Of a stretch of DNA of 44,530 bases, positions 3,825 through 40,928 are shown one piece after another (the first letter of the stretch is position 1; each line of letters begins with the position of its first letter). The notes below the pieces were generated by a model that made no database searches, was not told the DNA's origin, and saw only the letters and a program-made list of their open reading frames with translations. This stretch comes from a virus (taxonomy: Duplodnaviria > Caudoviricetes): positions 1-44,530 of IMG/VR virus record IMGVR_UViG_3300005805_008859; one strand, 5' to 3'. The position numbers and the translations under genes are program-made.

Positions 3825-4055
3825 ATGGATATTATTGACCCATTAGGCGCATCGGCTGCTCTTAGAAAGTCTTCAGTAACTCGTGAAATCTTTGATCCTG
3901 ACAACCCGGCACATCGAAATTCGCTAAAGCATTTTCTAAAGAAAGGTTCCTGGGCGGGACCTCAATTCTACGTTGAATACCCATGTTCAACTGTACCTGA
4001 GACAGTTTTGAGAAAAATGGCGCTCAAGGGCTTACAAATTCTAGATGAAAACTGA
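3825..4055 (+). CDS. Hypothetical protein
   Basis: ORF with RBS, overlaps the start of the next gene. Confidence 0.6.
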   Translation: MDIIDPLGASAALRKSSVTREIFDPDNPAHRNSLKHFLKKGSWAGPQFYVEYPCSTVPETVLRKMALKGLQILDEN

Positions 4056-4578
4056 GCTTAAAAATAGAACTCTCTGGTATGACGGCATCTCAGAAATAGA
4101 TGCGGCTGCGGCAGCTGAACTCATTCTGCTTGGAATGGGTCCACATGAGTTCATTGTTAATCAGCCAGATGAAGAGGTGGATCTCTTTAACTCACTGTCT
4201 GAGGTGAAAATACCTCAGACGCACTCTGGAAAAGTAGACTTACAGCACGATTGGATAGTGCCATTGAGGTATTTAGAACTAGATATAGAATCTTACTGCA
4301 CTGAGAAACTCTTGGAGTATGCGAACAAGAAGTGCATAAAGGATCTCACAAGATACCAGGAGCGGCTTAAGCTTGAAATAGAAGAAATCTCATCTAGAGA
4401 ACTAGAAAATATTGTGCGCTGCGTTATTTTTGCACTGGATCGCATGAAACAGACTGCTAGTATATGGGGAGTTGGGAGAGGTTCAAGCTGTGCCAGTTTG
4501 GTCTTCTTTCTTATCGGGCTGCACTGTGTTGATCCGGTGCTCTATGGAATCTCTCATCTAGAATTCTTCCACGACTAG
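4045..4578 (+). CDS. dnaE: DNA polymerase III alpha (DnaE)-like N-terminal palm fragment
   Basis: YQERLKLEIEEI, WGVGRGSSCASLVFFLIG, VDPVLYG match DnaE RL..E..I / GPGRGSGAGSLVAYAL / LDPL; ends before the catalytic DxD. Confidence 0.85.
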   Translation: MKTELKNRTLWYDGISEIDAAAAAELILLGMGPHEFIVNQPDEEVDLFNSLSEVKIPQTHSGKVDLQHDWIVPLRYLELDIESYCTEKLLEYANKKCIKDLTRYQERLKLEIEEISSRELENIVRCVIFALDRMKQTASIWGVGRGSSCASLVFFLIGLHCVDPVLYGISHLEFFHD

Positions 4579-4608
4579 ATTTTGATTCGGCATTTTGGCC
4601 GGCCTTAC

Positions 4609-4616
4609 TATAAATA
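4609..4616 (+). promoter_or_regulatory. T4-type late promoter
   Basis: Exact intergenic TATAAATA. Confidence 0.55.
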
Positions 4617-4670
4617 ATTTATCTGTTTTGTGCACTATATTTATCAGATAATTCACGGAGAAGAGGTGAT

Positions 4671-4961
4671 ATGAGCAAATTTGCCAGAAGCGCGCGGGGA
4701 GAATTAGTTGACTTTGATCTACTAGCTATCAAACAACAACTAGCCATGATGCCTGTCCCGGTTGGAGTAGATGAAAGGCGTCGATTCATAGACGAAAAGG
4801 ATGGTCTAAAGACCAAGCAGTCTCAAGATGCGTCTAGCTCTATAGAGCAGAGCGCTGATGTACTGCCCGCTGTTCCATCAGCACTCTCATTGTCACTTGC
4901 TGCTGCAGAAGAAAGTGCAGCCGCTCTTGATGATGAAGTGCCTGAAGATGAACAAGATTAA
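4671..4961 (+). CDS. Hypothetical protein
   Basis: GAGGTG RBS; RSARGELVDFDLL N-terminus; acidic tail. Confidence 0.7.
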   Translation: MSKFARSARGELVDFDLLAIKQQLAMMPVPVGVDERRRFIDEKDGLKTKQSQDASSSIEQSADVLPAVPSALSLSLAAAEESAAALDDEVPEDEQD

Positions 4962-4990
4962 AAATAAGTTGAAAATCATAGGAGAAAATT

Positions 4991-5314
4991 ATGGTGCTGC
5001 GTCCACTACAAAATTCATTTTTATTTTCATTTTTGAATGATACTGCTGCAGGAAGATTTATTGAGAAAAACAGTGGGTCAATTATCCTAACTAATCAGGA
5101 TTATGACAGCCAGGGTAAGTATGCCCGGTGGGCAAAAGTTTTGGCAGTAGGACCAAAGGTTACCGATTTTAGAACAGGAGATATCGTTCTAATTGAAGCC
5201 CTTCAATGGACTAAAGAAATTAGATTCCAAGGAAAATCTTTTTGGAAGTCAGATTCGTCAAAGGTTATAGCCATTACTCAGGACGAGAGCGCGGCCTACA
5301 CCTATCGTTATTGA
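4991..5314 (+). CDS. groES: Co-chaperonin GroES (Cpn10)-like protein
   Basis: LRPL N-terminus, SGSIIL mobile loop, KVLAVGP..GDIVL. Confidence 0.8.
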   Translation: MVLRPLQNSFLFSFLNDTAAGRFIEKNSGSIILTNQDYDSQGKYARWAKVLAVGPKVTDFRTGDIVLIEALQWTKEIRFQGKSFWKSDSSKVIAITQDESAAYTYRY

Positions 5315-5359
5315 TGCCGTATTTTGCATATCCGAGTGATATGATGAGGAAATTAAAGA

Positions 5360-6493
5360 ATGCTATTCATTGCTCTAGTATTACTAGCAGCCCTTTCTCT
5401 AGAAGGTATAGGAACATGGGTTAGTGTCATAGGACTCTCAGCGCTGTTTGCTGGAAGTCCTATTGTAATTGTCCTCGCGGTATGTTTAGATTTTGCAAAG
5501 TTGGTGGCTGTTTCATTCCTGTACAAGAACTGGAACGGCATCAATTTGCTAATGAAGAGTTACATGACAGTTGCTACATGCGTGCTCATACTCATAACAA
5601 GTGCCGGCGCATTCGGATTTCTCTCAGGAGAATTTCAAAAATCAATCTCAACCTCAAATGAACAGAAGGTCTTGATAACAGCTCTCACAGAAGAGCAGAC
5701 GCGGCTGCAGACCAGGAAGCTGGAGATTGATAAGCAGATCGCCCAGCTGCCAGAGAAAAATGTCAGGGGAAGAACAACGCTCATGCGCCAGTTCGGACCA
5801 GAGATTGATAGAATAAATTCTAGGTTGGTTGAAATAGATAAGCAGCTGCCGCAGTTAAAAATAGATTCTATTAAGAAGAACGTAAAGATTGGGCCAATTA
5901 CTTATGTTGCTGAGGTATTTGGAACAACACCAGAGGCAGCAATTAAATGGATTATTCTGGTCATTATATTTGTTTTTGACCCCTTAGCAGTTTCTCTACT
6001 GGTCGCTGCTAATTATTTGCTCACTCGCAGAGAGGCTGAGAAATCTGCCATTGAGAAAACACTCGAAGATTCTGTAGAAGAGCCGCCAGCACGGGTGATG
6101 AATGTAGAAGAGCCTCCTGCTGTTCAGATTGTCGTGCCTGAACCAGTGCCAGTGGTAGAAGCAGTGGTAGAAGAGGTCACGGTATCAGTGCCTGAACCAG
6201 AGCCTCCTCCTGTGACCCCTGCACCAGTCGTAAAATCCAGTGCCTCAGACCAAGTGGTGCCAGAGAAGAAGAGCAGAAGAAAATTACGAGAGAGTACTGC
6301 ATCAGTCAAATCTGCTGAGACCAAAAAAGATGCAGAACCCGTAGTGAAATCTATTCTAGAGAATGTTGATGATTCTAAGGGTGACGTAGAAATGTGGGCC
6401 ACAGATACCAAGAGAACTGATTCTAAAATCAATAATCTGTATAACTCTGATAGGGTGGGCGGTGGAGATCCCTCAGGCATACCAAAAAAGTAG
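5360..6493 (+). CDS. Multi-pass membrane protein with coiled coil and Pro/Val/Glu-rich tail
   Basis: Three N-terminal hydrophobic helices, heptad region, a fourth helix (IIFVFDPLAV), low-complexity tail. Confidence 0.75.
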   Translation: MLFIALVLLAALSLEGIGTWVSVIGLSALFAGSPIVIVLAVCLDFAKLVAVSFLYKNWNGINLLMKSYMTVATCVLILITSAGAFGFLSGEFQKSISTSNEQKVLITALTEEQTRLQTRKLEIDKQIAQLPEKNVRGRTTLMRQFGPEIDRINSRLVEIDKQLPQLKIDSIKKNVKIGPITYVAEVFGTTPEAAIKWIILVIIFVFDPLAVSLLVAANYLLTRREAEKSAIEKTLEDSVEEPPARVMNVEEPPAVQIVVPEPVPVVEAVVEEVTVSVPEPEPPPVTPAPVVKSSASDQVVPEKKSRRKLRESTASVKSAETKKDAEPVVKSILENVDDSKGDVEMWATDTKRTDSKINNLYNSDRVGGGDPSGIPKK

Positions 6494-6549
6494 TTTAACA
6501 AAGTCAGCACTTGGATTAAAATTTAATAGTTTAGATCTATGGAGAAACC

Positions 6550-7458
6550 ATGAAATCTTCCATTTGGGTAGAGCGCTATCGTCCAAAACGGCTCAGTGAC
6601 GTTATTTTTCAAGATGAGCGGCAGCAGCGACAGTTTCGCACTTTTATTGAAAATGGTGATATCCCGAATCTTCTTCTAAGTGGAATTCAAGGAACAGGTA
6701 AGACTACTATATCTAGAGCTCTGGTAGGTGAGTTGGGTATTGACCCTTCAGATGTGCTGCGAATTAACTGTTCTGATGAAAAGATTGATGCTCTTAGAAA
6801 TCGAGTCAGTGCCTTTGCCATGACCTTTCCTCTTGGAAAATTTAAGATTGTACAACTTGAGGAATGTGACCATCTTTCGTTAGATGGACAGGCTCTTTTA
6901 CGAGCTCTCATAGAGGACTCATCATCTAATTGTAGATACATCGCCACTTGTAACTATGAAAACAAGATCATACCTCCTCTGAAGTCAAGGTTCCAGCAAT
7001 TCATTTTCAAGGCACCAGATAAGAATGCCATTACGCTACGCCTAGCAGACATTCTTGACTTGGAGCGTGTGGCATACGATCCAGAAGATCTTGTTACCTA
7101 TGTGGATGTGGGATATCCGGACATTAGAAAAACTATCCAGCTACTGCAAGGAAACACGCAGGGCGGAAAACTTCTTGCACCAGGATCTGGAAAAGAAGCC
7201 GGTGACTGGAAATTTGGGCTCCTAGATGCAATCACTAGTGGAAACTTTAAGGTAGCTAGAAAATTGGTTTGCGAGTGTGCATCTCGTGAAGAGCATGAGG
7301 ATGTTTACAGGTTTCTATATGAGAACATAGATAAGTTAAAGGTGAACGATAAAGAGCAGGCCATAGTTACCATAGCGGACTATTTGAAATCTCACGCACT
7401 GGTTGCTGACACTGAGATTAACCTGGCAGCCTGCATGATTACTCTTTCACGGTGCTAA
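6550..7458 (+). CDS. Clamp loader ATPase subunit (RFC small / T4 gp44-like)
   Basis: WVERYRP, Walker A GIQGTGKT, Walker B-like LEECD, LKSRF sensor. Confidence 0.92.
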   Translation: MKSSIWVERYRPKRLSDVIFQDERQQRQFRTFIENGDIPNLLLSGIQGTGKTTISRALVGELGIDPSDVLRINCSDEKIDALRNRVSAFAMTFPLGKFKIVQLEECDHLSLDGQALLRALIEDSSSNCRYIATCNYENKIIPPLKSRFQQFIFKAPDKNAITLRLADILDLERVAYDPEDLVTYVDVGYPDIRKTIQLLQGNTQGGKLLAPGSGKEAGDWKFGLLDAITSGNFKVARKLVCECASREEHEDVYRFLYENIDKLKVNDKEQAIVTIADYLKSHALVADTEINLAACMITLSRC

Positions 7459-7473
7459 CACTCTAAATACAAA

Positions 7474-7935
7474 ATGGCAGCTTACAAATTAGATATTTTT
7501 GATCTGTTAAATCGGCTTAATTCCGCTAAGAGCGCTGATATCTACGCAGAGCTCTCAGAAGAGGAACGCAAAGGATTCGCTCCTCTGGTGGCAATGAGGT
7601 GGATGACTGGAACCAGCGATGAACGTCAGATCATGCTCATGAATGAATTCGTCAATCCTTACATTTTTTCACTTGGTAAACATCCTCACCTACTCATGCA
7701 GTGTTTACAGGCTTCTTCATCTAAGGTTAACAGACGCTATGCCTGGTACGCCGTGAAGACTTCTAAGAAGAGCCCACTCACCACTAGAGTTATTCAGGAA
7801 TATTTTGGCATCTCTTCAAGAGAAGCGGAAACTTACCTGATTCCACCAGCAGATGAGCTGCTTCAAATGGCAGAAGAACTTGGGTGGGAAAAGGATGTGA
7901 TCAAAAAGCTTGAGAAAGAGTTAAACTCTAAATAA
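7474..7935 (+). CDS. Putative clamp loader small subunit (T4 gp62-like)
   Basis: Directly after the gp44-like gene; size and VIQEYFGISSREAETY motif. Confidence 0.65.
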   Translation: MAAYKLDIFDLLNRLNSAKSADIYAELSEEERKGFAPLVAMRWMTGTSDERQIMLMNEFVNPYIFSLGKHPHLLMQCLQASSSKVNRRYAWYAVKTSKKSPLTTRVIQEYFGISSREAETYLIPPADELLQMAEELGWEKDVIKKLEKELNSK

Positions 7936-7938
7936 ATT

Positions 7939-8712
7939 ATGTCAGCGCAGAAAAAAGACAACGTCATCTTACTCTCACCAGAGCAGATTGCCGCGCGAAG
8001 AATCCCTATAGAAGAAGCAGTTGTTACTACTACTAATAAGAGCAGCAACTGGTACTGTAGCCACTGCACACGGCACTTTGGATCTGAAACTACCTTCATG
8101 AAACATCACTGTGAACCGCGTCGGCGCAAGGAGATGCTTGCATCTCCACTAGGTCAGGCTGCATATGGATACTATAGAGAATGGTTGCGGCAGAAAAAGT
8201 TTAGTATCCCATCTGCTGAAGCTTTCATGGATTCGCGTTACTACAGATCATTCATAAATTTTGCTCAATTAATAATTGATGCCAGTATTTCTAATCCGGA
8301 AAAATACATAGCTCTTATGATAGAGGCTGAGGTGCTGCCTGTTCTCTGGTGTCGAGACAACGCCTATGCCATATACTTGGAATGGAGAGACAAAAAATCT
8401 GACCCATTAGATGAGGTTCACAGTAGCATTAATTTTCTGCTAGATATCTGTGAAAAAGAAGAGACACAGCTGAGCTCCATTTTTGAATACTTAGGAGCGC
8501 AGCGCATTCTCTCGTATCTCAGGCAGAGACGCATTTCTCCATGGCTAATATTCTGCTGCCCATCATTTGGTAAATTCATGAGAAGCCTGGATTCCTCAGA
8601 ACTGGGTGCATTCAATTCAGCTGTCAATTCTTCATACTGGTCTGAAAAATTTCAGTCTAACAAACAAACTGTAGCGATAATAAAGGAAATAGTAGGTACG
8701 GTGCAACTATGA
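7939..8712 (+). CDS. Zinc-finger hypothetical protein
   Basis: YCSHCTRHF...MKHHC; stop codon overlaps the start of the DnaE C-terminal fragment (ATGA). Confidence 0.7.
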   Translation: MSAQKKDNVILLSPEQIAARRIPIEEAVVTTTNKSSNWYCSHCTRHFGSETTFMKHHCEPRRRKEMLASPLGQAAYGYYREWLRQKKFSIPSAEAFMDSRYYRSFINFAQLIIDASISNPEKYIALMIEAEVLPVLWCRDNAYAIYLEWRDKKSDPLDEVHSSINFLLDICEKEETQLSSIFEYLGAQRILSYLRQRRISPWLIFCCPSFGKFMRSLDSSELGAFNSAVNSSYWSEKFQSNKQTVAIIKEIVGTVQL

Positions 8713-9284
8713 ATGCAGATATTGATATCGACACACCGTCAAATTTTGATCCGACTGAAATATTTAATTGGCTACGTGCAAGCATGGTGAAGGACGCGCA
8801 GTTGGTCGCTCATCCATGTGGTGTTCATCCTCAGACTGTTCCGGGGGATCCTATCTCCGGGCTAGCAGCTATCCCCTACAGAGAAGCCCAAGCCCACGGG
8901 TATTTCAAGATAGATTTTCTTCACCTTGGTGTATATGATAACTTTTCATCGCGAGATGAAATAGATGCTCTACTAGAATTAGAACCGGATTGGAATCTGT
9001 TGGTGGATGAGAACGTTCAGCAGAAACTATTTCAACTGTCCAAGCACGGAGACATTCTAAATACCGTTAAACCTAAGAATATTGAAGAACTAGCAGATGT
9101 GTTGGCTCTCATTAGACCTGGAAAGAGGCAGCTACTGAAGCTGTACATGGCGCACCGTGAATCCACGCGTAGAATTCTATATGCTAGAGATGAACAGGGA
9201 TATTCATTTAAAAAGAGCCACGCTGTGGCCTATGCTCTAGTGATTAAACTGCAATTGTTGCTAGTTCAGGCGGGAGTACTGTAA
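8709..9284 (+). CDS. dnaE: DNA polymerase III alpha (DnaE)-like catalytic palm/fingers fragment
   Basis: ADIDID, HPCGV, YFKIDFL, LALIRPG and GYSFKKSHAVAYALV all match DnaE motifs. Confidence 0.88.
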   Translation: MNADIDIDTPSNFDPTEIFNWLRASMVKDAQLVAHPCGVHPQTVPGDPISGLAAIPYREAQAHGYFKIDFLHLGVYDNFSSRDEIDALLELEPDWNLLVDENVQQKLFQLSKHGDILNTVKPKNIEELADVLALIRPGKRQLLKLYMAHRESTRRILYARDEQGYSFKKSHAVAYALVIKLQLLLVQAGVL

Positions 9285-9285
9285 A

Positions 9286-9723
9286 TTATTCTTTGGTATT
9301 CTTCTTTAGTTTTATAGGTATGCCTTCAGGTATTGGGATAACTCTTCGACGTTTAACCTTATTCTCTTGAAGTCTGACATATGAGAATGCGTGCCCTATT
9401 ATTCTAGATACATATGCGGAATCAAATGTTTTGTATATTGGTGCAATCTGCTCTGTTAGATTTCTTTTTGCAAATTCAACGCTTAAGGGATATTTATCTG
9501 ATGATTTGTAAAACCATTCTGTGACAATACTTAGAAATGTGGCAATTTTGACATTTTCCTGTTCAGCATAATCAAGAACAAAGGCATTAATTCCTTCATC
9601 TGTAATATTATCTATGATGCACAAATAACACTCTCTTTTATACTCTATAAGAGACAAATATATTAAATTACCACGATCATTAATTAATTCTAATTTTAAT
9701 TCTGGCACTTTCTTTTTAGCCAT
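9286..9723 (-). CDS. Hypothetical protein
   Basis: Only convincing minus-strand ORF; GAGGAA RBS before MAKKK; fills the gap between + strand genes. Confidence 0.75.
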   Translation of the reverse strand: MAKKKVPELKLELINDRGNLIYLSLIEYKRECYLCIIDNITDEGINAFVLDYAEQENVKIATFLSIVTEWFYKSSDKYPLSVEFAKRNLTEQIAPIYKTFDSAYVSRIIGHAFSYVRLQENKVKRRRVIPIPEGIPIKLKKNTKE

Positions 9724-9821
9724 ATTATATTTCCTCAGCGCGATTCTCATCAGAGTGGATTCAACATTATTTAATCATGAGGCAACCTGAGATTCCTTAT
9801 GGTGAAAACTCACAAAAAGTG

Positions 9822-13567: not shown

Positions 13568-13610
13568 GATGTAGGGAGAGGTTTTAACATTTATTTTGGA
13601 GATAGCACAT

Positions 13611-14447
13611 ATGAAAAAAATCGTCATGACCTCTCCCGAATCATACGGGGTTTCCTACAACATCAATCCATGGATGGAAGGGAATATTGGTCAAACAGAT
13701 CCTGAAGAGGCCTCTCGCCAGTGGTCTGTGGTTAAAGAGTCTCTCATCACTGCCGGAGCGCAACTCACTGTGATGGAGTCTCCGCCAGCTGATTGTCCTG
13801 ATGCTGTATTTGTGGCAAATGCTGGAGTGGTTCTCGGAAAAAAATTCTTACCATCTAGATTCAAGTATGAGCAGAGAGCTGCTGAAGAACCATACTTTAC
13901 CTCTTGGTTTCGTGATGCTGGTTATGAGATCATTGAGCCTGATTATTCTTGCTCTACCAGAGAGAGTCTGGCATTTGAGGGGGCGGGAGATGCGCTGTTC
14001 AATGTGGACAGATCTGACCTGTGGTATGGTATAGGATTCAGAGGCACCTATCCATTCTCAGAGCAGTTACATCAAATTTTTGAGAGTGAAAGGGTGACTG
14101 TTAAGGTGTTGGCCATGGTCAATCCCAATTTCTATCATCTTGATACCTGCTTCTGCCCCCTAGATACTGGTGAGCTGTTGTGGTATCCTGATGCTTTTAG
14201 TGATCACAGCCAGAAGATCATCCGGGCGGCGTACAAGAAATCTGCAATCGAGGTCTCTGCCAGAGATGCAGTAGCTTTTGCCTGTAATGCAATCTCAGTA
14301 GGTTCCTCTATTGTCACATCAGTCATATCACGTGAACTGAATGCACACCTGCAAGCCCGTGGATATGAGGTGTACCAGTGCGATGTTTCTCAGTTCTTAA
14401 AGAGTGGTGGCGGTTGTAAGTGTCTCTCTTTAGAACTTGTTGAATAA
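13611..14447 (+). CDS. Amidinotransferase-superfamily enzyme (arginine dihydrolase / DDAH-like)
   Basis: YNINPWMEGN, PDAVFVANAG, FEGAGD, YHLDTCF, KSGGGCKC catalytic motifs. Confidence 0.88.
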   Translation: MKKIVMTSPESYGVSYNINPWMEGNIGQTDPEEASRQWSVVKESLITAGAQLTVMESPPADCPDAVFVANAGVVLGKKFLPSRFKYEQRAAEEPYFTSWFRDAGYEIIEPDYSCSTRESLAFEGAGDALFNVDRSDLWYGIGFRGTYPFSEQLHQIFESERVTVKVLAMVNPNFYHLDTCFCPLDTGELLWYPDAFSDHSQKIIRAAYKKSAIEVSARDAVAFACNAISVGSSIVTSVISRELNAHLQARGYEVYQCDVSQFLKSGGGCKCLSLELVE

Positions 14448-19714: not shown

Positions 19715-19745
19715 ATATCGCCTACTAATAATTTAAGGAGTGAAT

Positions 19746-20342
19746 ATGAAAAAGATTCTGGTTAGAAGAGATTCAACTGACAGAGCATTTGGCATGCATA
19801 CTGGTATCACGGGTAATACTTCTGGAATAACGGGCTACATTACCGGCATCATTGGCGATGTAACTAACATCACTGGAGATGCAACGCACGTGAAAGGAAA
19901 TGCTACTAATATCAGTGGTGACATTAGTAATATAAGAGGTGATGTGTCAAATATCACTGGTAATGTGGATGGTCTGTTTGGAGACGTTTCCAGCATAAGT
20001 GGCGATGTAACGAATATTACCGGAATTGTGTGTGGGCCACGGTGGAGCATGACCGGCATCATGGGCAGCATTAGAGGAGACGTTTCACGTATTACTGGTG
20101 ATGTTACAGGCATAACAGGAAACGTAGAAAACATTAGTGGCAAGGTATCTAATATCAGAGGAATTGTTTCAAATATCAGTGGAAATGTCAGCATGCTACG
20201 AGGTGATGTTAGCAGTCTCGTTGGTGACGTTACTGGTATCAGTGGAAATGCTTCTGGGATTGTAGGCGACCTAACCGAGTGTGAAATCTCTCAAGAGGAT
20301 AGAGATCGCGGGCTTGACATCACCGATTTACTGGGAGCCTAA
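19746..20342 (+). CDS. Heptapeptide-repeat protein (G-D/N-V-S/T-x-I-x), paralog 1
   Basis: About 20 tandem 7-residue repeats; AAGGAG RBS. Confidence 0.8.
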   Translation: MKKILVRRDSTDRAFGMHTGITGNTSGITGYITGIIGDVTNITGDATHVKGNATNISGDISNIRGDVSNITGNVDGLFGDVSSISGDVTNITGIVCGPRWSMTGIMGSIRGDVSRITGDVTGITGNVENISGKVSNIRGIVSNISGNVSMLRGDVSSLVGDVTGISGNASGIVGDLTECEISQEDRDRGLDITDLLGA

Positions 20343-21775: not shown

Positions 21776-22258
21776 ATGAATAATTCCTTGTCAAATAAAT
21801 CTAATTCAACGCGCAACATTACCGGCATCCATGATGGAGTGACTGGGCTGTGCGCGCATGATCTACGAGGAGATCTGTGTCAAATAAGAGGAGATGTCTC
21901 CGGCATCTCAGGTAACGTGAGTGATATTGAGGGCGATGTCTCTGGAATCATGGGTAGCATCTCTGGTATCTGGGGTGAGGTCTCTGGAATCGTTGGGGAT
22001 GTGAGTGGTATTTGGGGAAGTGTTACTTATATCACTGGTGACGTATCAGGTATAGCTGGAGATGTCTCTATGATGCGAGGAGATGTCTCAAATATAAGAG
22101 GCAGCGTTACTGGTGTTGTTGGGGATGTTACGAATATCCGAGGAGATGTGACGGGTATCTGGGGAGATGCTACTGATATTTCAGCAGATGTCACATGCGT
22201 TACAGGCAATCTAGACCAGATTAAATTTAATCCACGCCGGCACCGTGGTTACTGCTAG
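21776..22258 (+). CDS. Heptapeptide-repeat protein (G-D-V-S/T-G-I-x), paralog 2
   Basis: About 17 tandem 7-residue repeats; own TGaTATAAT at 21738-21746; GGAG RBS. Confidence 0.8.
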   Translation: MNNSLSNKSNSTRNITGIHDGVTGLCAHDLRGDLCQIRGDVSGISGNVSDIEGDVSGIMGSISGIWGEVSGIVGDVSGIWGSVTYITGDVSGIAGDVSMMRGDVSNIRGSVTGVVGDVTNIRGDVTGIWGDATDISADVTCVTGNLDQIKFNPRRHRGYC

Positions 22259-23611: not shown

Positions 23612-24760
23612 ATGTCAGGAAAAGGATCTACACAACGCCCAACTGATAAAAAGAAATTCGATGAAGGTTGGGAAAGAATTTTTGGTAAGAAAAAGATTGA
23701 GGAGGCACCTCAGCCCAAGCAGCCCAAGGCGCCCAAGCAGCGCAAGCTTGCAAGCATTAAACGCATTGCCGAGATTAGACTAATTCCAGGGGCCAACCAG
23801 ATATGCTCATATCGAGTAGATGGCTGGTGGGTTGTTGATAAATTATTTGCTCATTCAGTAGGTGACCTTGTTGTCTATCTTGAGGTCGACAGCTGGGTAC
23901 CACACAGCCTGGCACCATTCTTAAGCGGTTGTACTGCTCCTCGAGAGTTCAACGGTGTAAAGGGTGAGCGGCTGCGCACAGTACGGCTGCGTGGTCAACT
24001 CAGCCAAGGACTCTTGCTGAACCGCCAGGTAGTTCTAGATAGAATTGGTGAAATTAGCGAGGGCATGGATGTCGGTGATCTTCTAGGAATTCAAAAGTGG
24101 GAAGCACCCATTCCAGCTCAACTTGCTGGTGAAATGAAGGGAGCTTTCCCAAGCTTCATCCGCAAGACTGATCAGGAACGTATTCAGAATCTAGTACAAG
24201 AATTGCAGGATTGGAACGCACGGGATCTAACATGGGAAGTAACTGAGAAGTTGGATGGATCCTCTGGAACTTTCTACATGCGAGATGGTGAGTTTGGTGC
24301 CTGTAGCCGCAATCTTGAGCTCCGGGAGATTGAAACGAATACCTTCTGGAAAGTAGCGCGGCAGGCCCGTCTAGAAGAAATTCTACGAGCCGATGGTCGC
24401 AATCTCGCACTTCAAGGTGAGGTCATTGGTGAGGGAATCCAGGGTAATCGCTACGGCATAAAGGGTCATGATTTCTATGTTTTTGACATCTATGATATTG
24501 ATGCAGGTCGGTATTTAGTTAGCGACGCACGGCAGCAATTCTGTGCTCAGCATGGCTTGAAGCACGTTCCAGTTATTGAGACAGCTCGACAGCTCGGCGG
24601 TAAAGACGTGGATGCACTGCTTCAGTTAGCTGAGGGCCCAACAGTAATGTCCTCTGCTAAGAAGGGAACAGAACGCGAAGGATATGTGTACAAGTGCCGT
24701 GAGCTTGAGGCTAGCTTCAAAACTATTAGCAATCGATTTTTGCTTAAATCAGGTGACTGA
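23612..24760 (+). CDS. RNA ligase, DRB0094 family (OB domain + Rnl2-like nucleotidyltransferase)
   Basis: RLRGQLSQG, KTDQERIQN, TEKLDGSS, LQGEVIG, FDIYD, EREGYV, FKTISN. Confidence 0.9.
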   Translation: MSGKGSTQRPTDKKKFDEGWERIFGKKKIEEAPQPKQPKAPKQRKLASIKRIAEIRLIPGANQICSYRVDGWWVVDKLFAHSVGDLVVYLEVDSWVPHSLAPFLSGCTAPREFNGVKGERLRTVRLRGQLSQGLLLNRQVVLDRIGEISEGMDVGDLLGIQKWEAPIPAQLAGEMKGAFPSFIRKTDQERIQNLVQELQDWNARDLTWEVTEKLDGSSGTFYMRDGEFGACSRNLELREIETNTFWKVARQARLEEILRADGRNLALQGEVIGEGIQGNRYGIKGHDFYVFDIYDIDAGRYLVSDARQQFCAQHGLKHVPVIETARQLGGKDVDALLQLAEGPTVMSSAKKGTEREGYVYKCRELEASFKTISNRFLLKSGD

Positions 24761-26048: not shown

Positions 26049-26093
26049 ATCTAGTGTATAATTGATCTATTGTTAAATCCAAGGAGAAACTTC

Positions 26094-27059
26094 ATGGTTG
26101 CTGCCGTAACTATTCGTGAAAATGGTGTAGCCGAGATGGCGTATGTTGGAGAGAAACCATGGCACGGTCTAGGAGCAGAGCTACAGTCTGGAGCTGACAT
26201 CAGTACGTGGAGGCGAGCTGCCGGTATGGATTGGAGTATTCTCGCAGGAGCTGTCAATTATTCCACTCCAGCAGGTCAGTGCGAGATGCCTGGACAGCAA
26301 GTACTCTACCGCTCAGATAATCAGTTACCACTTGCTGTTGTATCTAATGCCTATAAAGTTGTGCAACCTGCTGATGTGTTGGAATTCTTCAGCGATCTTG
26401 CAGATGATAATGGATTCACCCTTGAGACTGCAGGTACCTTATTTCAGGGCCGGCGCTTCTGGGCCCTGGCCTCTATCAATGAACATGCGTGCGTGGTTGG
26501 TAATGATGCAGTTGGTGGCTATCTGCTGTTGAGCACTTCATGTGATGGAACTCTTACCACTAATGCACGATTTACCTCTGTGCGGGTGGTTTGTCACAAC
26601 ACACTGACCATGGCGCGTAAGGGTAAGGCTGATACTGGTGTAACAATTCGTCACAACACAGCATTTAAAGCAAATAAAGTTAAGGACGAATTGGGGATTG
26701 CTAGAGACAGCTTTGGTTCATTCATGAAGTCTGCTCGTACCCTCGCCGCCAAGAGTATGTCCAAGAGGAGTGCCGAGAAGTTTGTCGAGGATCTGTTGGT
26801 TGATGCCAAATTCAACACACCTGAAAATGTGCGCAAGAGCCGTCAATTCAATCGCATTCTAGATCTTTTCCAGGGTTCTGGCGTGGGGGCTGAGCTCCAG
26901 GGTGCAGAGGGTACCGCCTGGGGGTTAGTTAATGCGGTGACTGAGTTCGTAGATCACCATACCCGTGCCCGCACTAGCTCTGCCCGGCTAGCAAATGCCT
27001 GGTTTGGGCGTGGTGATGATCTCAAAACACAGAGCTTTGAACGGGCTCTTGCGCTCTGA
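26094..27059 (+). CDS. DUF932 family (TIGR03299 phage/plasmid-like) protein
   Basis: MAYVGEKPWHGLG, YKVVQP, ETAG, TSCDG, RVVCHNTL, GTAWGLVNAVTEFVDH; TATAAT at 26057; AAGGAG RBS. Confidence 0.88.
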   Translation: MVAAVTIRENGVAEMAYVGEKPWHGLGAELQSGADISTWRRAAGMDWSILAGAVNYSTPAGQCEMPGQQVLYRSDNQLPLAVVSNAYKVVQPADVLEFFSDLADDNGFTLETAGTLFQGRRFWALASINEHACVVGNDAVGGYLLLSTSCDGTLTTNARFTSVRVVCHNTLTMARKGKADTGVTIRHNTAFKANKVKDELGIARDSFGSFMKSARTLAAKSMSKRSAEKFVEDLLVDAKFNTPENVRKSRQFNRILDLFQGSGVGAELQGAEGTAWGLVNAVTEFVDHHTRARTSSARLANAWFGRGDDLKTQSFERALAL

Positions 27060-29782: not shown

Positions 29783-30805
29783 GTGAAAAGAGTTGGATTT
29801 GCCTGCATGTGGATCGATTCACCGGAACAAATAGGTGGAATTGGTCCTCATGATGAAGCCAAGAAGCTCAACACTCGAACCACAACCATTGCGTGGCTTA
29901 ACAGGCAGGATAGATCTACTGCTGAAGATCGCTTGATAGAACTTGTACAGCACAACATGCTCTCTGCTCGGCTCTTAATTGAAAGAGTTGGATCTCTGAG
30001 ACCTGAATTGAGAATGGTGAGGTTGAGCAGCGATCTTATTCCTGCCTATACCCATGAACATTGGGCTCCCTTCTGGCACTCACCAGAGGTGGTTAGGCTG
30101 CTTGAGAGAGGATTCGCACAGGTTGGAGAGGCCGCAACCACTCACGGAGTAAGAATTTCATTTCACCCAGGCCAGTTCTGCGTGCTAGGGAGTGATGTTG
30201 AACACACGGTAGAACGCTCGATTGAGGAATTCGAGTATCACGCTGACATGGCTCGCTGGATGGGCCGTGGCCAGCAGTTTCAAGATATGAAGATCAATGT
30301 TCACATCAGTGGGAGGCGAGGACCTGCTGGAGTTCGTGAGGTCTACACCAGAAGGCTGAGCACAGAGGCGCGTAACTGTATTACGTTAGAGAATGAAGAA
30401 ATAAGTCATGGATTGGATGCGACCTTGAGTGTGGCTGATATTATACCTACAGTGTTGGACCTACATCATCACTGGGTTAGAGAGGGTGAATACATTAGCG
30501 CCACCGATGATCGTGTCAAGAGGGTGATTGAATCATGGCGAGGGCGGCGACCCGCGTTTCACTACAGTCTGACTAGAGAATCAGTTCTACCAGCTCACAG
30601 TGAACATGAGGCTCCGGCACACGCTCTGCTACTAGAGGCTGGACAGAATAAACAGAAACTTCGAGCCCACAGTGATTTCATGTGGAACAGAGCAGTCAAT
30701 CGCTGGGCTGCTAGCCACTGGGAATGGGGAGATGTTATGGTCGAGTGCAAATCTAAGAATCTCGGAGCGCACGCACTCTTCAATGAATGGATGACTGGTT
30801 ACTAA
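29783..30805 (+). CDS. uvsE: UV damage repair endonuclease UvsE (UVDE)
   Basis: RVGFAC, RLSSDL, SFHPGQF, EFEYH, NVHISG, TLENEE, LDLHHH, HYS, AHSD, MVECKSK. Confidence 0.93.
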   Translation: MKRVGFACMWIDSPEQIGGIGPHDEAKKLNTRTTTIAWLNRQDRSTAEDRLIELVQHNMLSARLLIERVGSLRPELRMVRLSSDLIPAYTHEHWAPFWHSPEVVRLLERGFAQVGEAATTHGVRISFHPGQFCVLGSDVEHTVERSIEEFEYHADMARWMGRGQQFQDMKINVHISGRRGPAGVREVYTRRLSTEARNCITLENEEISHGLDATLSVADIIPTVLDLHHHWVREGEYISATDDRVKRVIESWRGRRPAFHYSLTRESVLPAHSEHEAPAHALLLEAGQNKQKLRAHSDFMWNRAVNRWAASHWEWGDVMVECKSKNLGAHALFNEWMTGY

Positions 30806-34650: not shown

Positions 34651-37600
34651 ATGCTATTCGACAATATTATCCTATTAAATGGCTCAAAGATAGAAAATGT
34701 GGTCGTGGACAGCGGCGCCTCTTTTCCAACTTCTCCTGATGCCGGCGAGCTCTTCTTCAAGACGTCTGACAGCAAACTATATGTTTATGACGGAACAGCT
34801 TGGAATGAAGTAGGTAGTGGATCGGGCGGCGGGTCATTCACTGTAACAGGTGATGCCACCGGAACTCTTGAAAATGGATCAGGAGCGCTAACTCTAGCGA
34901 CCGTTAATACTAATGTTGGAAACTATGGATCTGCTAGTTCCGTTCCTACCTTTAGCGTCAATACCAAAGGTTTAATTACTGCAGCGGCTCAGACATCAAT
35001 TTCTATCACGCCGAGCCAGATTTCATCAACTGTTCCTGTATCTAAAGGTGGAACAGGACAGACGACTGCATCTGCAGCAATCAATGCACTCGTGCCAAGC
35101 CAGGCAGCAAGCCCTGGCCGATTCCTAATGACGGATGGCTCATCAGTTAGCTGGCAAGTACCAGCTGGTGGTACAGTATCAAGTGTTGATATAAGTGGCG
35201 GCAGCACTGGACTCACAGTAGCAGGTGGACCAATAACTACTAGTGGAACACTCACCTTGGGTGGTGTACTGGGTGTGGCAGCAGGTGGCACAGGACAGTC
35301 TACAGCAGCTGGTGCCATCGCAGCACTGTTGCCTAATCAAACTGTTCACGGTGGCAAATTTTTACAAACCAATGGAACAGTTACATCTTGGGCAACAATC
35401 TCTTCCTCAAATGTAACCTCAGCGCTAGGCTATACTCCAGTCAGTAAAGCTGGGGATACCATGACAGGCCCACTGGTTCTCTCAGATAACCCAACTCTTG
35501 ACATGCACGCTGCTACCAAGCAGTATGTAGACAATGTTGCGGCGGGGATCAATGTTCTAGGAGCCTGTAGAACAGCAACCACTGCTGAATTATCAGCAAC
35601 ATACAGTAATGGATCATCAGGAGTTGGCGCAACTCTAACTGGCACCGCTGCTCTACCATCCATAGGCAGCATCACGCTATCTACCTCACAACGTGTGTTG
35701 GTAAAGAATCAAACTGATCAGAAGCAAAATGGCATCTATGTTGTCACATCTGCATCAAACCCATGGGTTCTTACCCGCGCCACAGATTATGATGGGCGCT
35801 TCCCCGGAACCATTGATGCTGGCGATACAGTGTTCGTACAAGAGGGTGATCTAGCTGGGACTCTTTGGGTTCAGAACACCACTGGACAGCTAACAGTTGG
35901 CACAAGTAATCTATCCTGGACTCAATTCAGTGGGCCTGGCTCATACAGTGCCGGCACAGGTATAGGTCTATCAAACAATGTAATCTCAAATGCAGGCGTG
36001 CTCAGCGTAACAGCTGGTGCAAATACCTCTGTCTCTGCTGCTACAGGAGCAATAACCGTCGGATTCAGTGGAACTCTACCAGTTGCCAGTGGTGGTACTG
36101 GACAGACAACGCTTCAAGATGCGCTAAATTCACTAGCCGGCGGCGTTACAGCAAACCGTGTATTAAGAGGTGACGGCACGAATGTTGCACTTGGTACACT
36201 TGATCTTTCTACAGATGGTTTTACCGGAACTCTACCAGTTGCCCGAGGTGGTACTGGAGTAACCTCAACTACGGCCATCGCCACGGCCATACTACCTAGT
36301 CAGACAGATAATTCAGGAAAGTTCTTGATGACTACTGGTGCTGGGCTGCAATGGGTAGGAATCTCAGTTGAGGGCAGTGGTGGAGCCCTACAATTCAATA
36401 ATAATGGTCAATTTGATGGTACCTCACAGATTTCATATAATGCAACTGATACGCTCACTGTTGGGGCTGCAGCCGGTACTTTCAATATAATTGGTGCCAC
36501 AGAGTCTAGTGGATTAACTATATTGGGTGGAGTGACCGAGGGTGGCATGACAGCAGACCCTGTAGTCCCCAGATCATCTACTCTGACGCTTCAAGGTGGT
36601 AGGGCTAACGATAAAATGGTTAATGGAACAGCACAACCATCAAAAGCTGGCGGTGACGTTGTTATTGCTGGCGGTATAAGTGCAAGTTCTTTCGGAGGAT
36701 CAGTTATTATAAAAACTGCAGCTTCCAACTCTCTCACTGAGAGATTAAAAATAGACAGCACTGGGACTTGGTATGTATCAGGAACTGCTGGAACCGCAGG
36801 ATATGTACTTACATCTGGTGGGCCTGGAGTTGCACCAAGTTGGACCATTCCACCTGCAGTTACGTCAATTAATATAAGTGGTGGAACAACTGGTTTGACT
36901 GCCACTGGTGGCCCAATAACCACCAGTGGCACGCTAACTCTTGGTGGAACGCTAGCAATATCAGCTGGTGGAACTGGACAAACAACCGCCGCAGCAGCTA
37001 TCAATGCTCTACTTCCAACTCAAACCGGAAATACTGGAAGATTCTTAACAACAGATGGAACAAATGCAAGCTGGGTTGCAGCTCAGGGTACTGGCAGCGT
37101 TACATCGGTTAATGCAAGTGGCGGCACGACCGGCTTGACATTCTCTGGTGGACCAATAGATGCCGCTGGCACGCTAACGCTAGGTGGTACGCTGAGCATC
37201 GCAAGTGGTGGTACAGGTCAGACCACAGCTCAGGGTGCGCTGAATGCACTTGCCGGTGGAGTTACTGCAAATCGTGTGCTTGTAGGTAATGGTACAAACG
37301 TTGCGCTTGGTACTCTCAGTCTGTCAAGTGACACTTTTACTGGAACGTTACCAGTTGCCCGAGGTGGTACAGGTCAAACCACTGCTTCCGGCGCAATTAA
37401 TGCCATGGTCCCAAGTCAATCTGGGAAGATCGGACAATATCTAACTACAAATGGAACTGAAGTTAGCTGGGCAACAATTTCTAGTGTAGCTGCAGCTGGT
37501 GAACAAGGTGACATTCAGTTTAACGATTCGGGCGTCACTGCTGCAAACTCCGCGCTGAAATTGATTGGCGATAATTTGACTGCTACCAAGGATATGTCTG

Positions 37601-39756
37601 TTAATGGTATGACAGTGGGCGCCGGTTCAGGTACTGGGACTATCAATAAGAACACCGCATTGGGCTATGGTGTTCTAGGAGGAAGTTCTCAAGCTGTTAG
37701 AAATGCTGGTGTAGGATATTCTGCTCTTGCTGGCATAGTACATGGTTCTGATAATGTTGCAGTTGGATATTCTGCAGCCTCATCTATTGAGACAGTTTCC
37801 GGTAACGTTGCCATTGGGTCTGAGGCACTTTCATTAAATCGCTTAGGTAGCAACAACGTTGCTGTTGGTTACAGAGCAATCAAAGGAACGCAACCGGTAT
37901 CTGGCGCCGTATCTGGTAGCAACAACGTAGCTGTTGGGTCTGAAGCATTCTCATCAAACATATCAGGGTCAACTAATGTTGCAATAGGTAGTTCAGCGCT
38001 CAACAAAACAACGACTGGTGATGGGAACGTAGCTGTTGGTAGCTCGGCTCTCATTAATAATACCACTGCCAGTAATAGCACCGGTATAGGTAAAAATTCT
38101 CTATATTCTTCTTATGGAGCCGGTAATACTGCAGTTGGTTATGAATCCCTGTACGGAAATACCGCTGGTGCCAACAATGTTGCCATAGGTGCTGGTGCTG
38201 GTGGCGATCTAACAACTGGAGATGATAATACTATTATAGGATGTCATCGTGGTGAAGTCAGTTTGGCTAGAACTGTAATCATCTCCGCTGGAACACTACA
38301 GAGGTTAAGGTTTAATTCTGATGGTGCTCTAGAATTAACAGAAGATTCTGGTTATGGTTCTAGTGGTCAAGTGCTGACATCCAATGGAAGTGCTGCCGCT
38401 CCATCGTGGTCAACTCCTACCACCGGTACAGTTACATCTGTTAGTGGAAGTGGTGGGTCAACAGGGCTTACTCTCAGTGGCGGCCCAATTACTTCAAGTG
38501 GTACTCTGACGCTGGGTGGCACACTAGGTATAGCTAATGGTGGTACAGGCCAGACCACAGCTAGTGGGGCAATTAATGCACTTGTCCCAAGTCAAACTGG
38601 CAACGGTGGCAAATATTTGACGACAGACGGCTCAGCAGTAAGTTGGGCAGCAGTACCATCAGCTGGTACGTTAGAAAACAGCACCACTCTCGGTACCTCT
38701 TCTGCCGCAGTCTCTATAACTGGCTTCACCAGCACAAGCAGTGGTGGTGCCCCAATGACCATCTCTGCTGGTACTACTAGCGCTGGAAATGGAAACAGTC
38801 TGACCTTATCTGGCGGTGCTGCAGCTTCAGCTAACACCGGCGGTGCAGTTGTTATTAGATCGGGTGATAGTGGCGCCAGCGGTGGGGCTGCTGGTTCATT
38901 AACCGTGCACGCAGATAGCTCATATGGTGGTGGTAGTGTTACAGTACGAGGTGGAGACAGTGCTGGTAATGGTACTGTTGGAGCTAGTGCAAATGGTGGT
39001 TCACTAACACTTCGCGGTGGTGACTCAACTAATGGCTCTGCTGGATCTACGCCTGGAAACGTAGATATTCGTGGTGGCAATGCGGCAGCAACAACCAGTG
39101 GTGGCTCAGTAACCATCAGTGGTGGCACTGGACCAGCAGGTGGTGGAACTGTTATCTTCCAAACTGCTGAAACCTCTTCACTCACAGAGCGCTTGCGTAT
39201 AGCAAATAATGGTGCATGGGGTCTGGCTGGAGCTAATTATGGCACAAGTGGTCAGGTACTAACGAGCAATGGATCTGGCTCTGCTCCCACATGGCAAAGT
39301 ACTGCATCAGCTGCTCTACCCAGCCAGACAGGTAACAGTGGAAAATATCTCACTACAGATGGCACAACAGCAAGTTGGGCAACAGTAAGTGCTTCATTAA
39401 GTGGTGTATCAGCTTTCGGTGCATCATACAATGAAGTAGATTCTACAATCACGGCCAGCTCAACCACGAGCATTGACTGCTCACTGTCTAACAACTTCAG
39501 CATCTCTATGGCTGCGTCTATATCTACCCTATCATTTACCAATGTTCCAGCAAGCGGGCGACTCTACTGTGCTACTCTGTTCCTAGTTCAGGATTCTGCT
39601 GGATCAAAAACAGTAAATTGGCCAGCGTCATTCAGGTGGTCTGGTGGCAGTGCACCAACCTTAACCACAACCGGCAGCAAGACAGATATTATCACTATAG
39701 TCACACGAGATGGTGGTACGACATGGTTTGCCATGACTGCGGGACAGAACTTCTGA
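34651..39756 (+). CDS. Long tail-fibre-like virion protein (1701 aa)
   Basis: Repeated GGTGQTTA / PSQTGNSGKYLTTDG / GGPITTSGTLTLGG modules, HAATKQYVD, RVLVKNQT..NGIY, YadA-like NVAVG repeats. Confidence 0.8.
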   Translation: MLFDNIILLNGSKIENVVVDSGASFPTSPDAGELFFKTSDSKLYVYDGTAWNEVGSGSGGGSFTVTGDATGTLENGSGALTLATVNTNVGNYGSASSVPTFSVNTKGLITAAAQTSISITPSQISSTVPVSKGGTGQTTASAAINALVPSQAASPGRFLMTDGSSVSWQVPAGGTVSSVDISGGSTGLTVAGGPITTSGTLTLGGVLGVAAGGTGQSTAAGAIAALLPNQTVHGGKFLQTNGTVTSWATISSSNVTSALGYTPVSKAGDTMTGPLVLSDNPTLDMHAATKQYVDNVAAGINVLGACRTATTAELSATYSNGSSGVGATLTGTAALPSIGSITLSTSQRVLVKNQTDQKQNGIYVVTSASNPWVLTRATDYDGRFPGTIDAGDTVFVQEGDLAGTLWVQNTTGQLTVGTSNLSWTQFSGPGSYSAGTGIGLSNNVISNAGVLSVTAGANTSVSAATGAITVGFSGTLPVASGGTGQTTLQDALNSLAGGVTANRVLRGDGTNVALGTLDLSTDGFTGTLPVARGGTGVTSTTAIATAILPSQTDNSGKFLMTTGAGLQWVGISVEGSGGALQFNNNGQFDGTSQISYNATDTLTVGAAAGTFNIIGATESSGLTILGGVTEGGMTADPVVPRSSTLTLQGGRANDKMVNGTAQPSKAGGDVVIAGGISASSFGGSVIIKTAASNSLTERLKIDSTGTWYVSGTAGTAGYVLTSGGPGVAPSWTIPPAVTSINISGGTTGLTATGGPITTSGTLTLGGTLAISAGGTGQTTAAAAINALLPTQTGNTGRFLTTDGTNASWVAAQGTGSVTSVNASGGTTGLTFSGGPIDAAGTLTLGGTLSIASGGTGQTTAQGALNALAGGVTANRVLVGNGTNVALGTLSLSSDTFTGTLPVARGGTGQTTASGAINAMVPSQSGKIGQYLTTNGTEVSWATISSVAAAGEQGDIQFNDSGVTAANSALKLIGDNLTATKDMSVNGMTVGAGSGTGTINKNTALGYGVLGGSSQAVRNAGVGYSALAGIVHGSDNVAVGYSAASSIETVSGNVAIGSEALSLNRLGSNNVAVGYRAIKGTQPVSGAVSGSNNVAVGSEAFSSNISGSTNVAIGSSALNKTTTGDGNVAVGSSALINNTTASNSTGIGKNSLYSSYGAGNTAVGYESLYGNTAGANNVAIGAGAGGDLTTGDDNTIIGCHRGEVSLARTVIISAGTLQRLRFNSDGALELTEDSGYGSSGQVLTSNGSAAAPSWSTPTTGTVTSVSGSGGSTGLTLSGGPITSSGTLTLGGTLGIANGGTGQTTASGAINALVPSQTGNGGKYLTTDGSAVSWAAVPSAGTLENSTTLGTSSAAVSITGFTSTSSGGAPMTISAGTTSAGNGNSLTLSGGAAASANTGGAVVIRSGDSGASGGAAGSLTVHADSSYGGGSVTVRGGDSAGNGTVGASANGGSLTLRGGDSTNGSAGSTPGNVDIRGGNAAATTSGGSVTISGGTGPAGGGTVIFQTAETSSLTERLRIANNGAWGLAGANYGTSGQVLTSNGSGSAPTWQSTASAALPSQTGNSGKYLTTDGTTASWATVSASLSGVSAFGASYNEVDSTITASSTTSIDCSLSNNFSISMAASISTLSFTNVPASGRLYCATLFLVQDSAGSKTVNWPASFRWSGGSAPTLTTTGSKTDIITIVTRDGGTTWFAMTAGQNF
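38718..39297 (+). repeat. 580-bp module shared with 41513-42092
   Basis: Same length, near-identical protein, long identical DNA stretches. Confidence 0.85.
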
Positions 39757-39810
39757 TGTTTATAGAATGATGCATAAGGTAGCGTACTTGCGCATATTTT
39801 TATAGCTACT

Positions 39811-39908
39811 GACTCAGTCAACCTTACAGTAGTGTTGACTGAGTCTTCATCTAATAGGCATTTAGAAAGAAATAGCGCACTATCATGTGAAGAGCGCGTG
39901 CGCTCTTC
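39811..39908. repeat. Two inverted repeats in the intergenic region
   Basis: GACTCAGTCAAC-N11-GTTGACTGAGTC; GAAGAGCGC-gt-GCGCTCTTC. Confidence 0.75.
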
Positions 39909-40055
39909 TACAAAATAATCCATGATATTCTTAATAAGAATAAATAATGCTGTGACACCTGGATTATTAAACACAAAAATCTAAAATATGATAGAGCCGT
40001 TCATAAATATGAAATAGAAATTACGCGTGGCCACCAATTTCTGGAGATTCTAAAC

Positions 40056-40904: not shown

Positions 40905-40928
40905 TTGAACAGCTTGTAAGGAAAAACC

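Follow-up and report, generated by a model that had tools for sequence, protein, structure and literature searches.

Two small genes lying 4.1 kb apart in a 44,530-nucleotide fragment of a Caudoviricetes virus (IMG/VR record IMGVR_UViG_3300005805_008859, positions 1 to 44,530; hereafter the window) are, judging from their homology, a split minimal DNA polymerase III alpha subunit (Pol III alpha) of the type carried by group 2.2 jumbo phages. Since nature has joined the two halves in both orders, they very likely act as one enzyme, and we place about even confidence in the view that this enzyme is a two-chain, template-directed, short-run DNA polymerase that works at the fork, where it would lengthen primers or close gaps on behalf of the family B replicase (Pol B). 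Split minimal enzymes of this kind were already described from sequence by Iyer et al. (2021, Viruses 13:63, PMC7824862), whose accessible passages suggest a role in one-strand synthesis or in repair. The novelty contemplated in an earlier note on this DNA is thus lost, the family being in print and in PHROGs (11127 and 11778), as the same note had feared when it warned that related large phages may already have such open reading frames (ORFs) annotated. The window alone is one further family member and leaves the picture unchanged; what is new, relative to the accessible passages of that paper, are two natural single-chain forms, a residue map and a set of neighbourhood counts. The two genes, whose ORFs, lengths and motifs were all found in the sequence as first reported, are the following:

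4045..4578, plus strand: N-half of the minimal Pol III alpha, 177 amino acids (aa), with the motifs GVGRGSS and VDPVLYG and the C-terminal residues LEFFHD
8709..9284, plus strand: C-half of the minimal Pol III alpha, 191 aa, with ADIDID, HPCGV, FKIDFL, LIRPG and FKKSHAVAY

A predicted split active site

Both halves pass the curated cut-offs of Pfam, the N-half with DNA_pol3_alpha (E 5e-8) and the C-half with DNA_pol3_finger (E 1.4e-5), and are covered end to end by PHROG 11127 (E 4.5e-30) and PHROG 11778 (E 5e-59), respectively, which excludes a chance resemblance. No difference of kind separates the pair from group 2.2: there are two separate genes, one for an N-terminal piece binding nucleoside triphosphates and one for a C-terminal piece binding Mg2+ and template, and Atu_ph07, placed in that group by the paper, has genes matching both halves across 97% of their length. 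The window contributes a member from an uncultured freshwater clade, with the halves only a few kb apart. Comparing each half with Pol III alpha, a check proposed in the earlier note, gave alignments of both profiles to Escherichia coli DnaE: the N-half runs without gaps along residues 317-394 (probability 95%) and the C-half along residues 529-642 (probability 63%), with its DIDID start aligned to the catalytic strand of the Taq enzyme and its FKKSH to E. coli residues 751-770. These alignments place the break between P394 and D401, with no overlap of the halves, and so just before the catalytic DxD, where it had been put originally. Moreover, DnaE homology reaches the last residue of the N-half and begins at residue 3-4 of the C-half, and no intein family was matched at E values up to 0.1 in the 19 window ORFs scanned, so that a split intein, of which no ends had been visible before, is ruled out. 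The pair shares with split-intein DnaE a polymerase encoded in two genes, but it has no intein, is minimal, has halves that do not overlap and would be accessory to Pol B, whereas the split-intein enzymes are full-length main replicases.

The active-site map is based on contacts reported in the accessible part of a preprint on the cryo-electron microscopy structure of the E. coli Pol III ternary complex (bioRxiv 10.64898/2026.06.29.735100), which were followed in 178 N-halves and in 103 distant C-halves (the window, 100 near-full-length sequences from the 150 representatives listed, and the parts of the two fusions described below). After about 70 N-terminal residues without assignment, the N-half consists of palm helices followed by the nucleotide-binding RGS motif, whose R145, G146 and S147 correspond to E. 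coli R362, G363 and S364 and are kept in 178/178 sequences; the chain ends at the P394 equivalent. In the C-half, D4, D6 and D69 stand for D401, D403 and D555 and K67 for K553, each of them kept in 103/103 sequences, so the retention of the three catalytic Asp holds well beyond the window in which it was noticed. Primer and template residues are equally persistent, with H35 (H511, mapped by motif order) in 102/103, R136 (R639) in 101/103 and P137 (P640) in 103/103. Further on, Y165, F167 and H171 occupy the places of Y754, F756 and H760; the steric-gate His H171 is kept in 99/103 C-halves, the F756 equivalent in 81/103 (Tyr in 14) and the Y764 equivalent in 90/103 (Phe in 8). All of them follow one another in the order seen in E. 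coli DnaE. According to the same part of the preprint, the places of R639/P640, H511 and H760 provide template contacts, a primer contact and the gate against ribonucleotides, K553A and R362A abolish Pol III activity, and R390A costs 27-fold. As both residues whose loss kills Pol III, R362 and K553, are retained, and the loss of R390 costs only 27-fold, activity is plausible.

What is missing is also extensive. The two chains total 368 aa, compared with 1160 aa in E. coli DnaE, and the lack of recognisable PHP, HhH and OB domains was borne out by Pfam, which matched no such family in the 19 ORFs scanned. The thumb is mostly gone, its body being deleted (29 residues from D403 to H511, compared with 108 in E. 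coli), and so is the index finger (a median of 34 residues from R639 to H760, compared with 121), in agreement with the much shortened thumb and fingers seen at the outset. The arginines of FERFLNPER, which had not been evident, are indeed lost, R390 being replaced by Glu in 175/178 N-halves (E173 in the window) and the chain stopping before R396. In turn, the family has conserved lysines of its own, K139 (91/103) and K168 (95/103, Arg in 6); the latter takes the place of N757, which in Pol III, according to the preprint passages, lies no more than 4 A from the nucleotide. Four ordinary full-length DnaEs of Bacillota (L285-L288) have Ser where R390 would be and Lys where N757 would be, and may by analogy be taken as a precedent for K168; the eight DnaEs of the longer-protein search mentioned below all keep the Arg of R390, and none of them has Lys at N757. 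Invariant N-half residues foreign to E. coli DnaE are E173, H160 (174/178) and a C or V at position 149. Among the hallmarks of C-family polymerases, then, the RGS motif, the three Asp, K553 and the steric-gate His are present, and a full thumb and index finger, R390/R396 and the PHP, HhH and OB domains are absent. From these residues we infer a templated, deoxy-selective, slow and distributive polymerase. Its active site would very likely form only in the heterodimer, with the N-chain bringing the RGS nucleotide-binding motif and the C-chain the metal-binding Asp, the primer-end Lys, the template Arg-Pro and the helix of the steric-gate His, and its substrates are probably deoxynucleotides on a primed template.

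Both halves are under purifying selection. The ratio of nonsynonymous to synonymous divergence (dN/dS) was 0-0.10 in the ten closest C-half pairs (dS 0.05-0.53) and 0.14 in the single close N-half pair, and of 24 cultured N-half pairs more than 60% identical, 14 gave 0.02-0.25 and 10 were saturated. Pairs with dS below 1.5 had median ratios of 0.50 (N) and 0.23 (C), which were set aside, because such pairs are close to saturation and their ratio is inflated by the filter. Population variants among those listed comprised 6 synonymous changes and 1 replacement in the N-half, and 6 and 0 in the C-half (12/13 synonymous). Neutral evolution, a check suggested in the earlier note, was therefore not seen in close pairs of either half, and its opinion that this is not a decayed gene stands, given the low ratios, the mostly synonymous variants and the invariant catalytic residues.

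Natural fusions and the pairing of the halves

The case for one enzyme is carried by two natural fusions, which appeared among the best 150 of 542 matches to the C-half profile in a 50% library. P0337 (375 aa) is an N-C fusion, with the N-half at residues 7-183 (N-profile probability 99.7%) and the C-half directly after it at 189-374 (C-profile E 8e-30), joined by a linker without arginine. P0385 (398 aa) is circularly permuted, with the C-half at 6-194 followed by the core of the N-half at 232-312 (97.9%), and its tail, by eye only, resembles the first residues of the N-half. Two different joins, both at the expected ends, would not readily arise by chance. AlphaFold2 modelled P0337 as one folded unit, with a predicted template modelling score (pTM) of 0.73 and a mean predicted local distance difference test (pLDDT) of 80; a mixed alignment in which N-halves were misplaced on the C part was excluded from folding. 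When used as a query, P0337 matched 101 phage records at 193 places, and 59 of the 60 records listed match twice. A natural single-chain form of this kind turns the testing of the enzyme into a one-gene experiment.

The separate genes are also found together. Of 160 C-half loci fetched, 125 were distinct and 50 had at least 9 kb of upstream sequence, which contained an N-half in 42/50; the other 8 are not true absences, because the halves can lie far apart. In one locus (L038, 8715-10573) the N-half has even been relocated to a site past the zinc-finger gene and about 750 bases ahead of the C-half, with the 96-aa gene that normally accompanies it staying behind beside GroES.

Relatives of either fusion were found neither in viral contigs nor, at 80% coverage, in phage records, and plasmids contained no relative of P0337. 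A search for longer proteins with the C-half profile recovered, among 7,999 scored candidates, only 8 proteins, all with ordinary DnaE domain sets. Another candidate fusion (L144, 1232-2224) was rejected: a C-half without its first residues lies in frame behind an unrelated membrane protein, presumably a cytochrome bd subunit, in what is probably a chimeric contig.

Gene neighbourhood and the proposed role at the fork

Between and after the two halves lie the following genes:

4671..4961, plus strand: conserved small gene, 96 aa, starting with R-G-x-x-V-D-F-D; candidate third chain
4991..5314, plus strand: GroES-like co-chaperonin, fixed neighbour of the N-half (Pfam/PHROG)
6550..7458, plus strand: clamp-loader ATPase subunit of the RFC / T4 gp44 type (Pfam/PHROG)
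7474..7935, plus strand: probable clamp-loader small subunit, T4 gp62-like, a weak match (PHROG 225, E 4.6e-5; T4 gp62 chains, E 0.03)
7939..8712, plus strand: protein of 257 aa with a C2H2-type zinc finger and a helical part; the stop of its gene overlaps the start of the C-half
9286..9750, minus strand: conserved convergent gene of unknown function, 154 aa (PHROG 11637)

The layout is not an assembly artefact, since positions 3900-9400 are covered by a single unbroken contig in two of the four sequencing runs compared, both from other studies; the other two cover them in pieces, with no joint listed. In the clade of the window the order is stable: N-half, 96-aa gene, GroES, a membrane protein, clamp-loader ATPase, gp62-like gene, zinc-finger gene, C-half and the antisense (convergent) gene, with the zinc-finger gene upstream of the C-half in 72/77 close loci. 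Distant C-half loci (75 distinct of 80) show a related block of UvsW, gp62-like gene, zinc finger, C-half, antisense gene, primase and helicase. Upstream of the C-half these contain the zinc finger in 37/37, the gp62-like gene in 37/37 and a UvsW-like helicase in 36/37 loci; downstream, the convergent gene (PHROG 11637) is found in 62/63, primase in 40/45 and helicase in 27/30. The same C-half block occurs in GAP32, Atu_ph07, Phosso and 121Q, and in 5/6 cultured phages shown the clamp-loader ATPase gene comes shortly after the N-half, which in the sixth, Phosso, is farther upstream of it.

The zinc-finger protein may possibly be a gp59-like helicase loader, to judge from its model (pLDDT 91), to which T4 gp59 (1c1k_A) was the second-ranked match (Z 5.3, root-mean-square deviation 10.7, 170/217 residues aligned). 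This match is weak, although gp59 was the only family listed by the fold search to cover the length of the model, and the C-terminal 151 aa of gp59 had no match to the protein at the sequence level. Sequence profiles of the zinc-finger and antisense genes matched no protein of solved structure other than zinc fingers, and in the Atlas only unnamed viral clusters.

In 49/50 loci, and in most of the cultured phages examined, the N-half is followed by the 96-aa gene. The residues of its conserved start, R-G-x-x-V-D-F-D/E, are spaced like R396 and D401-F-D403 in E. coli DnaE, which is the stretch lost where the two halves part. A more elaborate scheme, a three-chain C-family polymerase acting as the Pol alpha of the phage, in which the 96-aa chain would supply the lost R396 in trans and primers would pass from DnaG to Pol B or be made de novo, is nevertheless highly improbable. 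Distant members of the 96-aa family keep R-G..D without the Phe, PA5oct lacks the Arg, and most of these distant members carry a second similar motif; moreover, the relocated N-half of L038 left the gene behind, and the fusion P0337 has no such arginine. A complex prediction of N-half, C-half and residues 1-55 of the 96-aa protein as partner gave a score of 0.01 (mark 0.32), with the fold of the partner uncertain. As a separate observation, the gene after the N-half in the Kaldavass phage (L178, 1205-1510) appears frame-broken or mis-assembled.

In the explanation that we favour, the halves would assemble into one small template-directed polymerase that adds short runs of DNA at the T4-type fork of the phage, where it would probably lengthen primers made by the primase or close gaps ahead of the hand-over to the family B replicase; synthesis would be slow and distributive, with the conserved K139 and K168 standing in for the lost arginines. 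The fork is suggested by the position of the C-half in a block with primase, helicase and clamp-loader genes, by that of the N-half beside the clamp-loader ATPase, and by complete or near-complete relatives (336-368 kb), which have Pol B in 5/5 and a primase homologue in 5/5 cases (its Toprim acidic motifs were seen in both of the relatives inspected for them and in GAP32). Because these relatives carry both, the minimal polymerase is neither the sole replicase nor needed for want of a primase. Eukaryotic Pol alpha, a full-length enzyme, is a short-run polymerase between primase and main replicase. In bacteria, DnaE of Bacillus subtilis extends DnaG primers before hand-off, as stated in the accessible passages of PMC3664799. 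The likeness to such a second, short-run polymerase between primase and replicase is a proposed functional one only: those enzymes are full-length and of shown activity, whereas here the role is deduced and a T4-type Pol B serves as main replicase. If a primer relay to Pol B is true, T4-type phages would have reached a hand-off from primase to short-run polymerase to replicase like that of B. subtilis and eukaryotes.

Several points weigh against this explanation. The polymerase activity itself is predicted from sequence; R390 has given way to an acidic residue, R396, R709, K714 and K715 have no counterpart, and other positions are only partly kept (Y754 in 67/103, G641 in 44/103, G753 in 31/103). 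P0337 and P0385 are each a cluster of one on short contigs (2,415 and 3,442 bases), and either may be chimeric, a chimeric contig of another kind (L144) having occurred among the fetched loci. In the P0337 model the junction (167-187) has pLDDT below 50 and the first 80 residues about 60, the alignment behind it was imperfect, with about 21 residues per N row lying on the C part, and the success of the fold may be owed to its likeness to solved DnaE structures. Neither Pol B nor primase was found in the window, a 44.5-kb fragment, and in its own clade the C-half has neither the primase nor the helicase gene as a neighbour. T4-type phages cluster their replication genes anyway, so the neighbourhood does not single out primer extension, and the Pol B of T4 extends RNA primers unaided, which leaves the need for a primer relay unexplained.

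The same two-chain polymerase could instead work in repair or recombination, filling gaps with low fidelity or bypassing lesions away from the primase. The lost index finger and the inconstant Y754 suggest a loose nucleotide pocket, a UvsW-like helicase lies upstream in nearly all distant loci, and repair is one option named in the passages of Iyer et al. (PMC7824862); but both halves are found in the company of replisome genes (clamp-loader subunits, primase, helicase) and their near-universal retention in the group looks more like a core function, so we regard this job as unlikely. A non-canonical nucleotidyltransferase, which would make DNA primers de novo, add nucleotides without template or nucleotidylate a protein or RNA, would agree with the near disappearance of the duplex-gripping thumb, the N-half invariants foreign to E. 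coli DnaE (E173, H160, C/V at 149) and the unassigned N-half start. It is distinctly unlikely, as the equivalents of template (R639, P640) and primer (K553, H511, L557) contacts and the steric gate are retained and all 5 complete relatives have a primase homologue. Of the heterodimeric stripped-down polymerase first proposed for this pair, the heterodimer very likely stands as one enzyme; its suggested de novo priming and terminal transfer have, for these same reasons, lost ground.

That the halves mainly work apart, each with another partner such as the product of a neighbour or the host Pol III, might explain why their genes can be separated by as much as about 224 kb and belong to different conserved blocks, the N-half travelling with the 96-aa gene and GroES (49/50) and the C-half with the zinc-finger gene (72/77), but fusions in both orders, exact complementarity at the break and the move of the N-half next to the C-half in L038 make it improbable. 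A catalytically dead or decaying dnaE remnant would account for the missing R390, R396 and R709 and for the largely missing thumb and fingers; it is extremely improbable in view of the catalytic residues invariant across 103 C-halves and 178 N-halves, the dN/dS far below 1 in close pairs and the excess of synonymous population variants.

Relatives and further observations

The sequencing runs with the strongest matches to the window are lake and freshwater metagenomes, and none of the 22 runs listed as containing its sequence is an RNA run. The phage carrying the two halves belongs to an uncultured freshwater clade that is closest to RsoM2USA and XacN1, the identity to RsoM2USA being 35% for the N-half and 50% for the C-half. 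The gene content of the window includes a T4-type clamp loader, GroES and an ATP ligase (Pfam/PHROG scan). In a search of 50,697 phage records the N-half matched 97 and the C-half 96, the rows listed being nearly all jumbo phages, with RsoM2USA, XacN1 and Xoo-sp13 as best matches; three of the listed N-half matches come from Burkholderia phages of 68-72 kb and are annotated there as ordinary polymerases. Sharanji, a phage of the group, is listed with E. coli MG1655 as its host. The separation of 4.1 kb is correct for the window but does not extend to the family as a general trait, since in cultured relatives the distance between the halves ranges from about 4 kb in RsoM2USA to about 224 kb in Phosso: it is a trait of the lineage. 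About 95 cultured jumbo-phage records carry a minimal polymerase known from sequence. A literature search, with most subscription papers outside its reach, found no bench test of a split minimal Pol III alpha, and the accessible passages of the RsoM2USA paper (PMC8504454) list a main polymerase and an epsilon-like gene, with the N-half and C-half genes not among them. At about 370 residues, a C-family polymerase one third the size of DnaE would reveal which parts of the replicase are sufficient for catalysis.

Some other observations concern this family. Xoo-sp13 has an intact N-half gene (L180, 895-1440) that is unannotated in its GenBank record. One viral contig with a C-half also encodes a second DnaE-like protein of about 560 aa (L184, 8745-10445), without PHP and with shortened thumb and fingers, in which the RF-x-x-P-x-R and DxD motifs are intact. 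Eighteen C-half loci (L267-L284), mostly adjoining a zinc-finger gene, come from bacterial and archaeal metagenome-assembled genomes and are probably phage contigs binned with cells. In the ESM Atlas, P0337 matched, with scores of 0.93-0.94, clusters of 355-378 aa proteins that are assigned to Bacillota and carry the palm and finger families of Pol III alpha; these are either single-chain minimal DnaEs or fragments.

Elsewhere in the window, Pfam found a phage-borne D-Ala-D-Ala carboxypeptidase (Peptidase_S11; 2000-2836), as well as a saccharopine-dehydrogenase-like protein (37-1179) and an amidinotransferase/DDAH-like protein (13596-14447), from which a polyamine or modified-amino-acid route could possibly be built. 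Two proteins (19740-20342 and 21776-22258) are made of 7-residue G-D/N-V-x-x-I-x repeats. The ORFs at 23612-24760, 26070-27059 and 29783-30805 resemble an RNA ligase, a DUF932 protein and a UV-damage endonuclease, respectively. Positions 34651-43427 encode three long Gly/Ser/Thr-rich repeat proteins that have blocks in common and resemble tail-fibre or head-decoration proteins.

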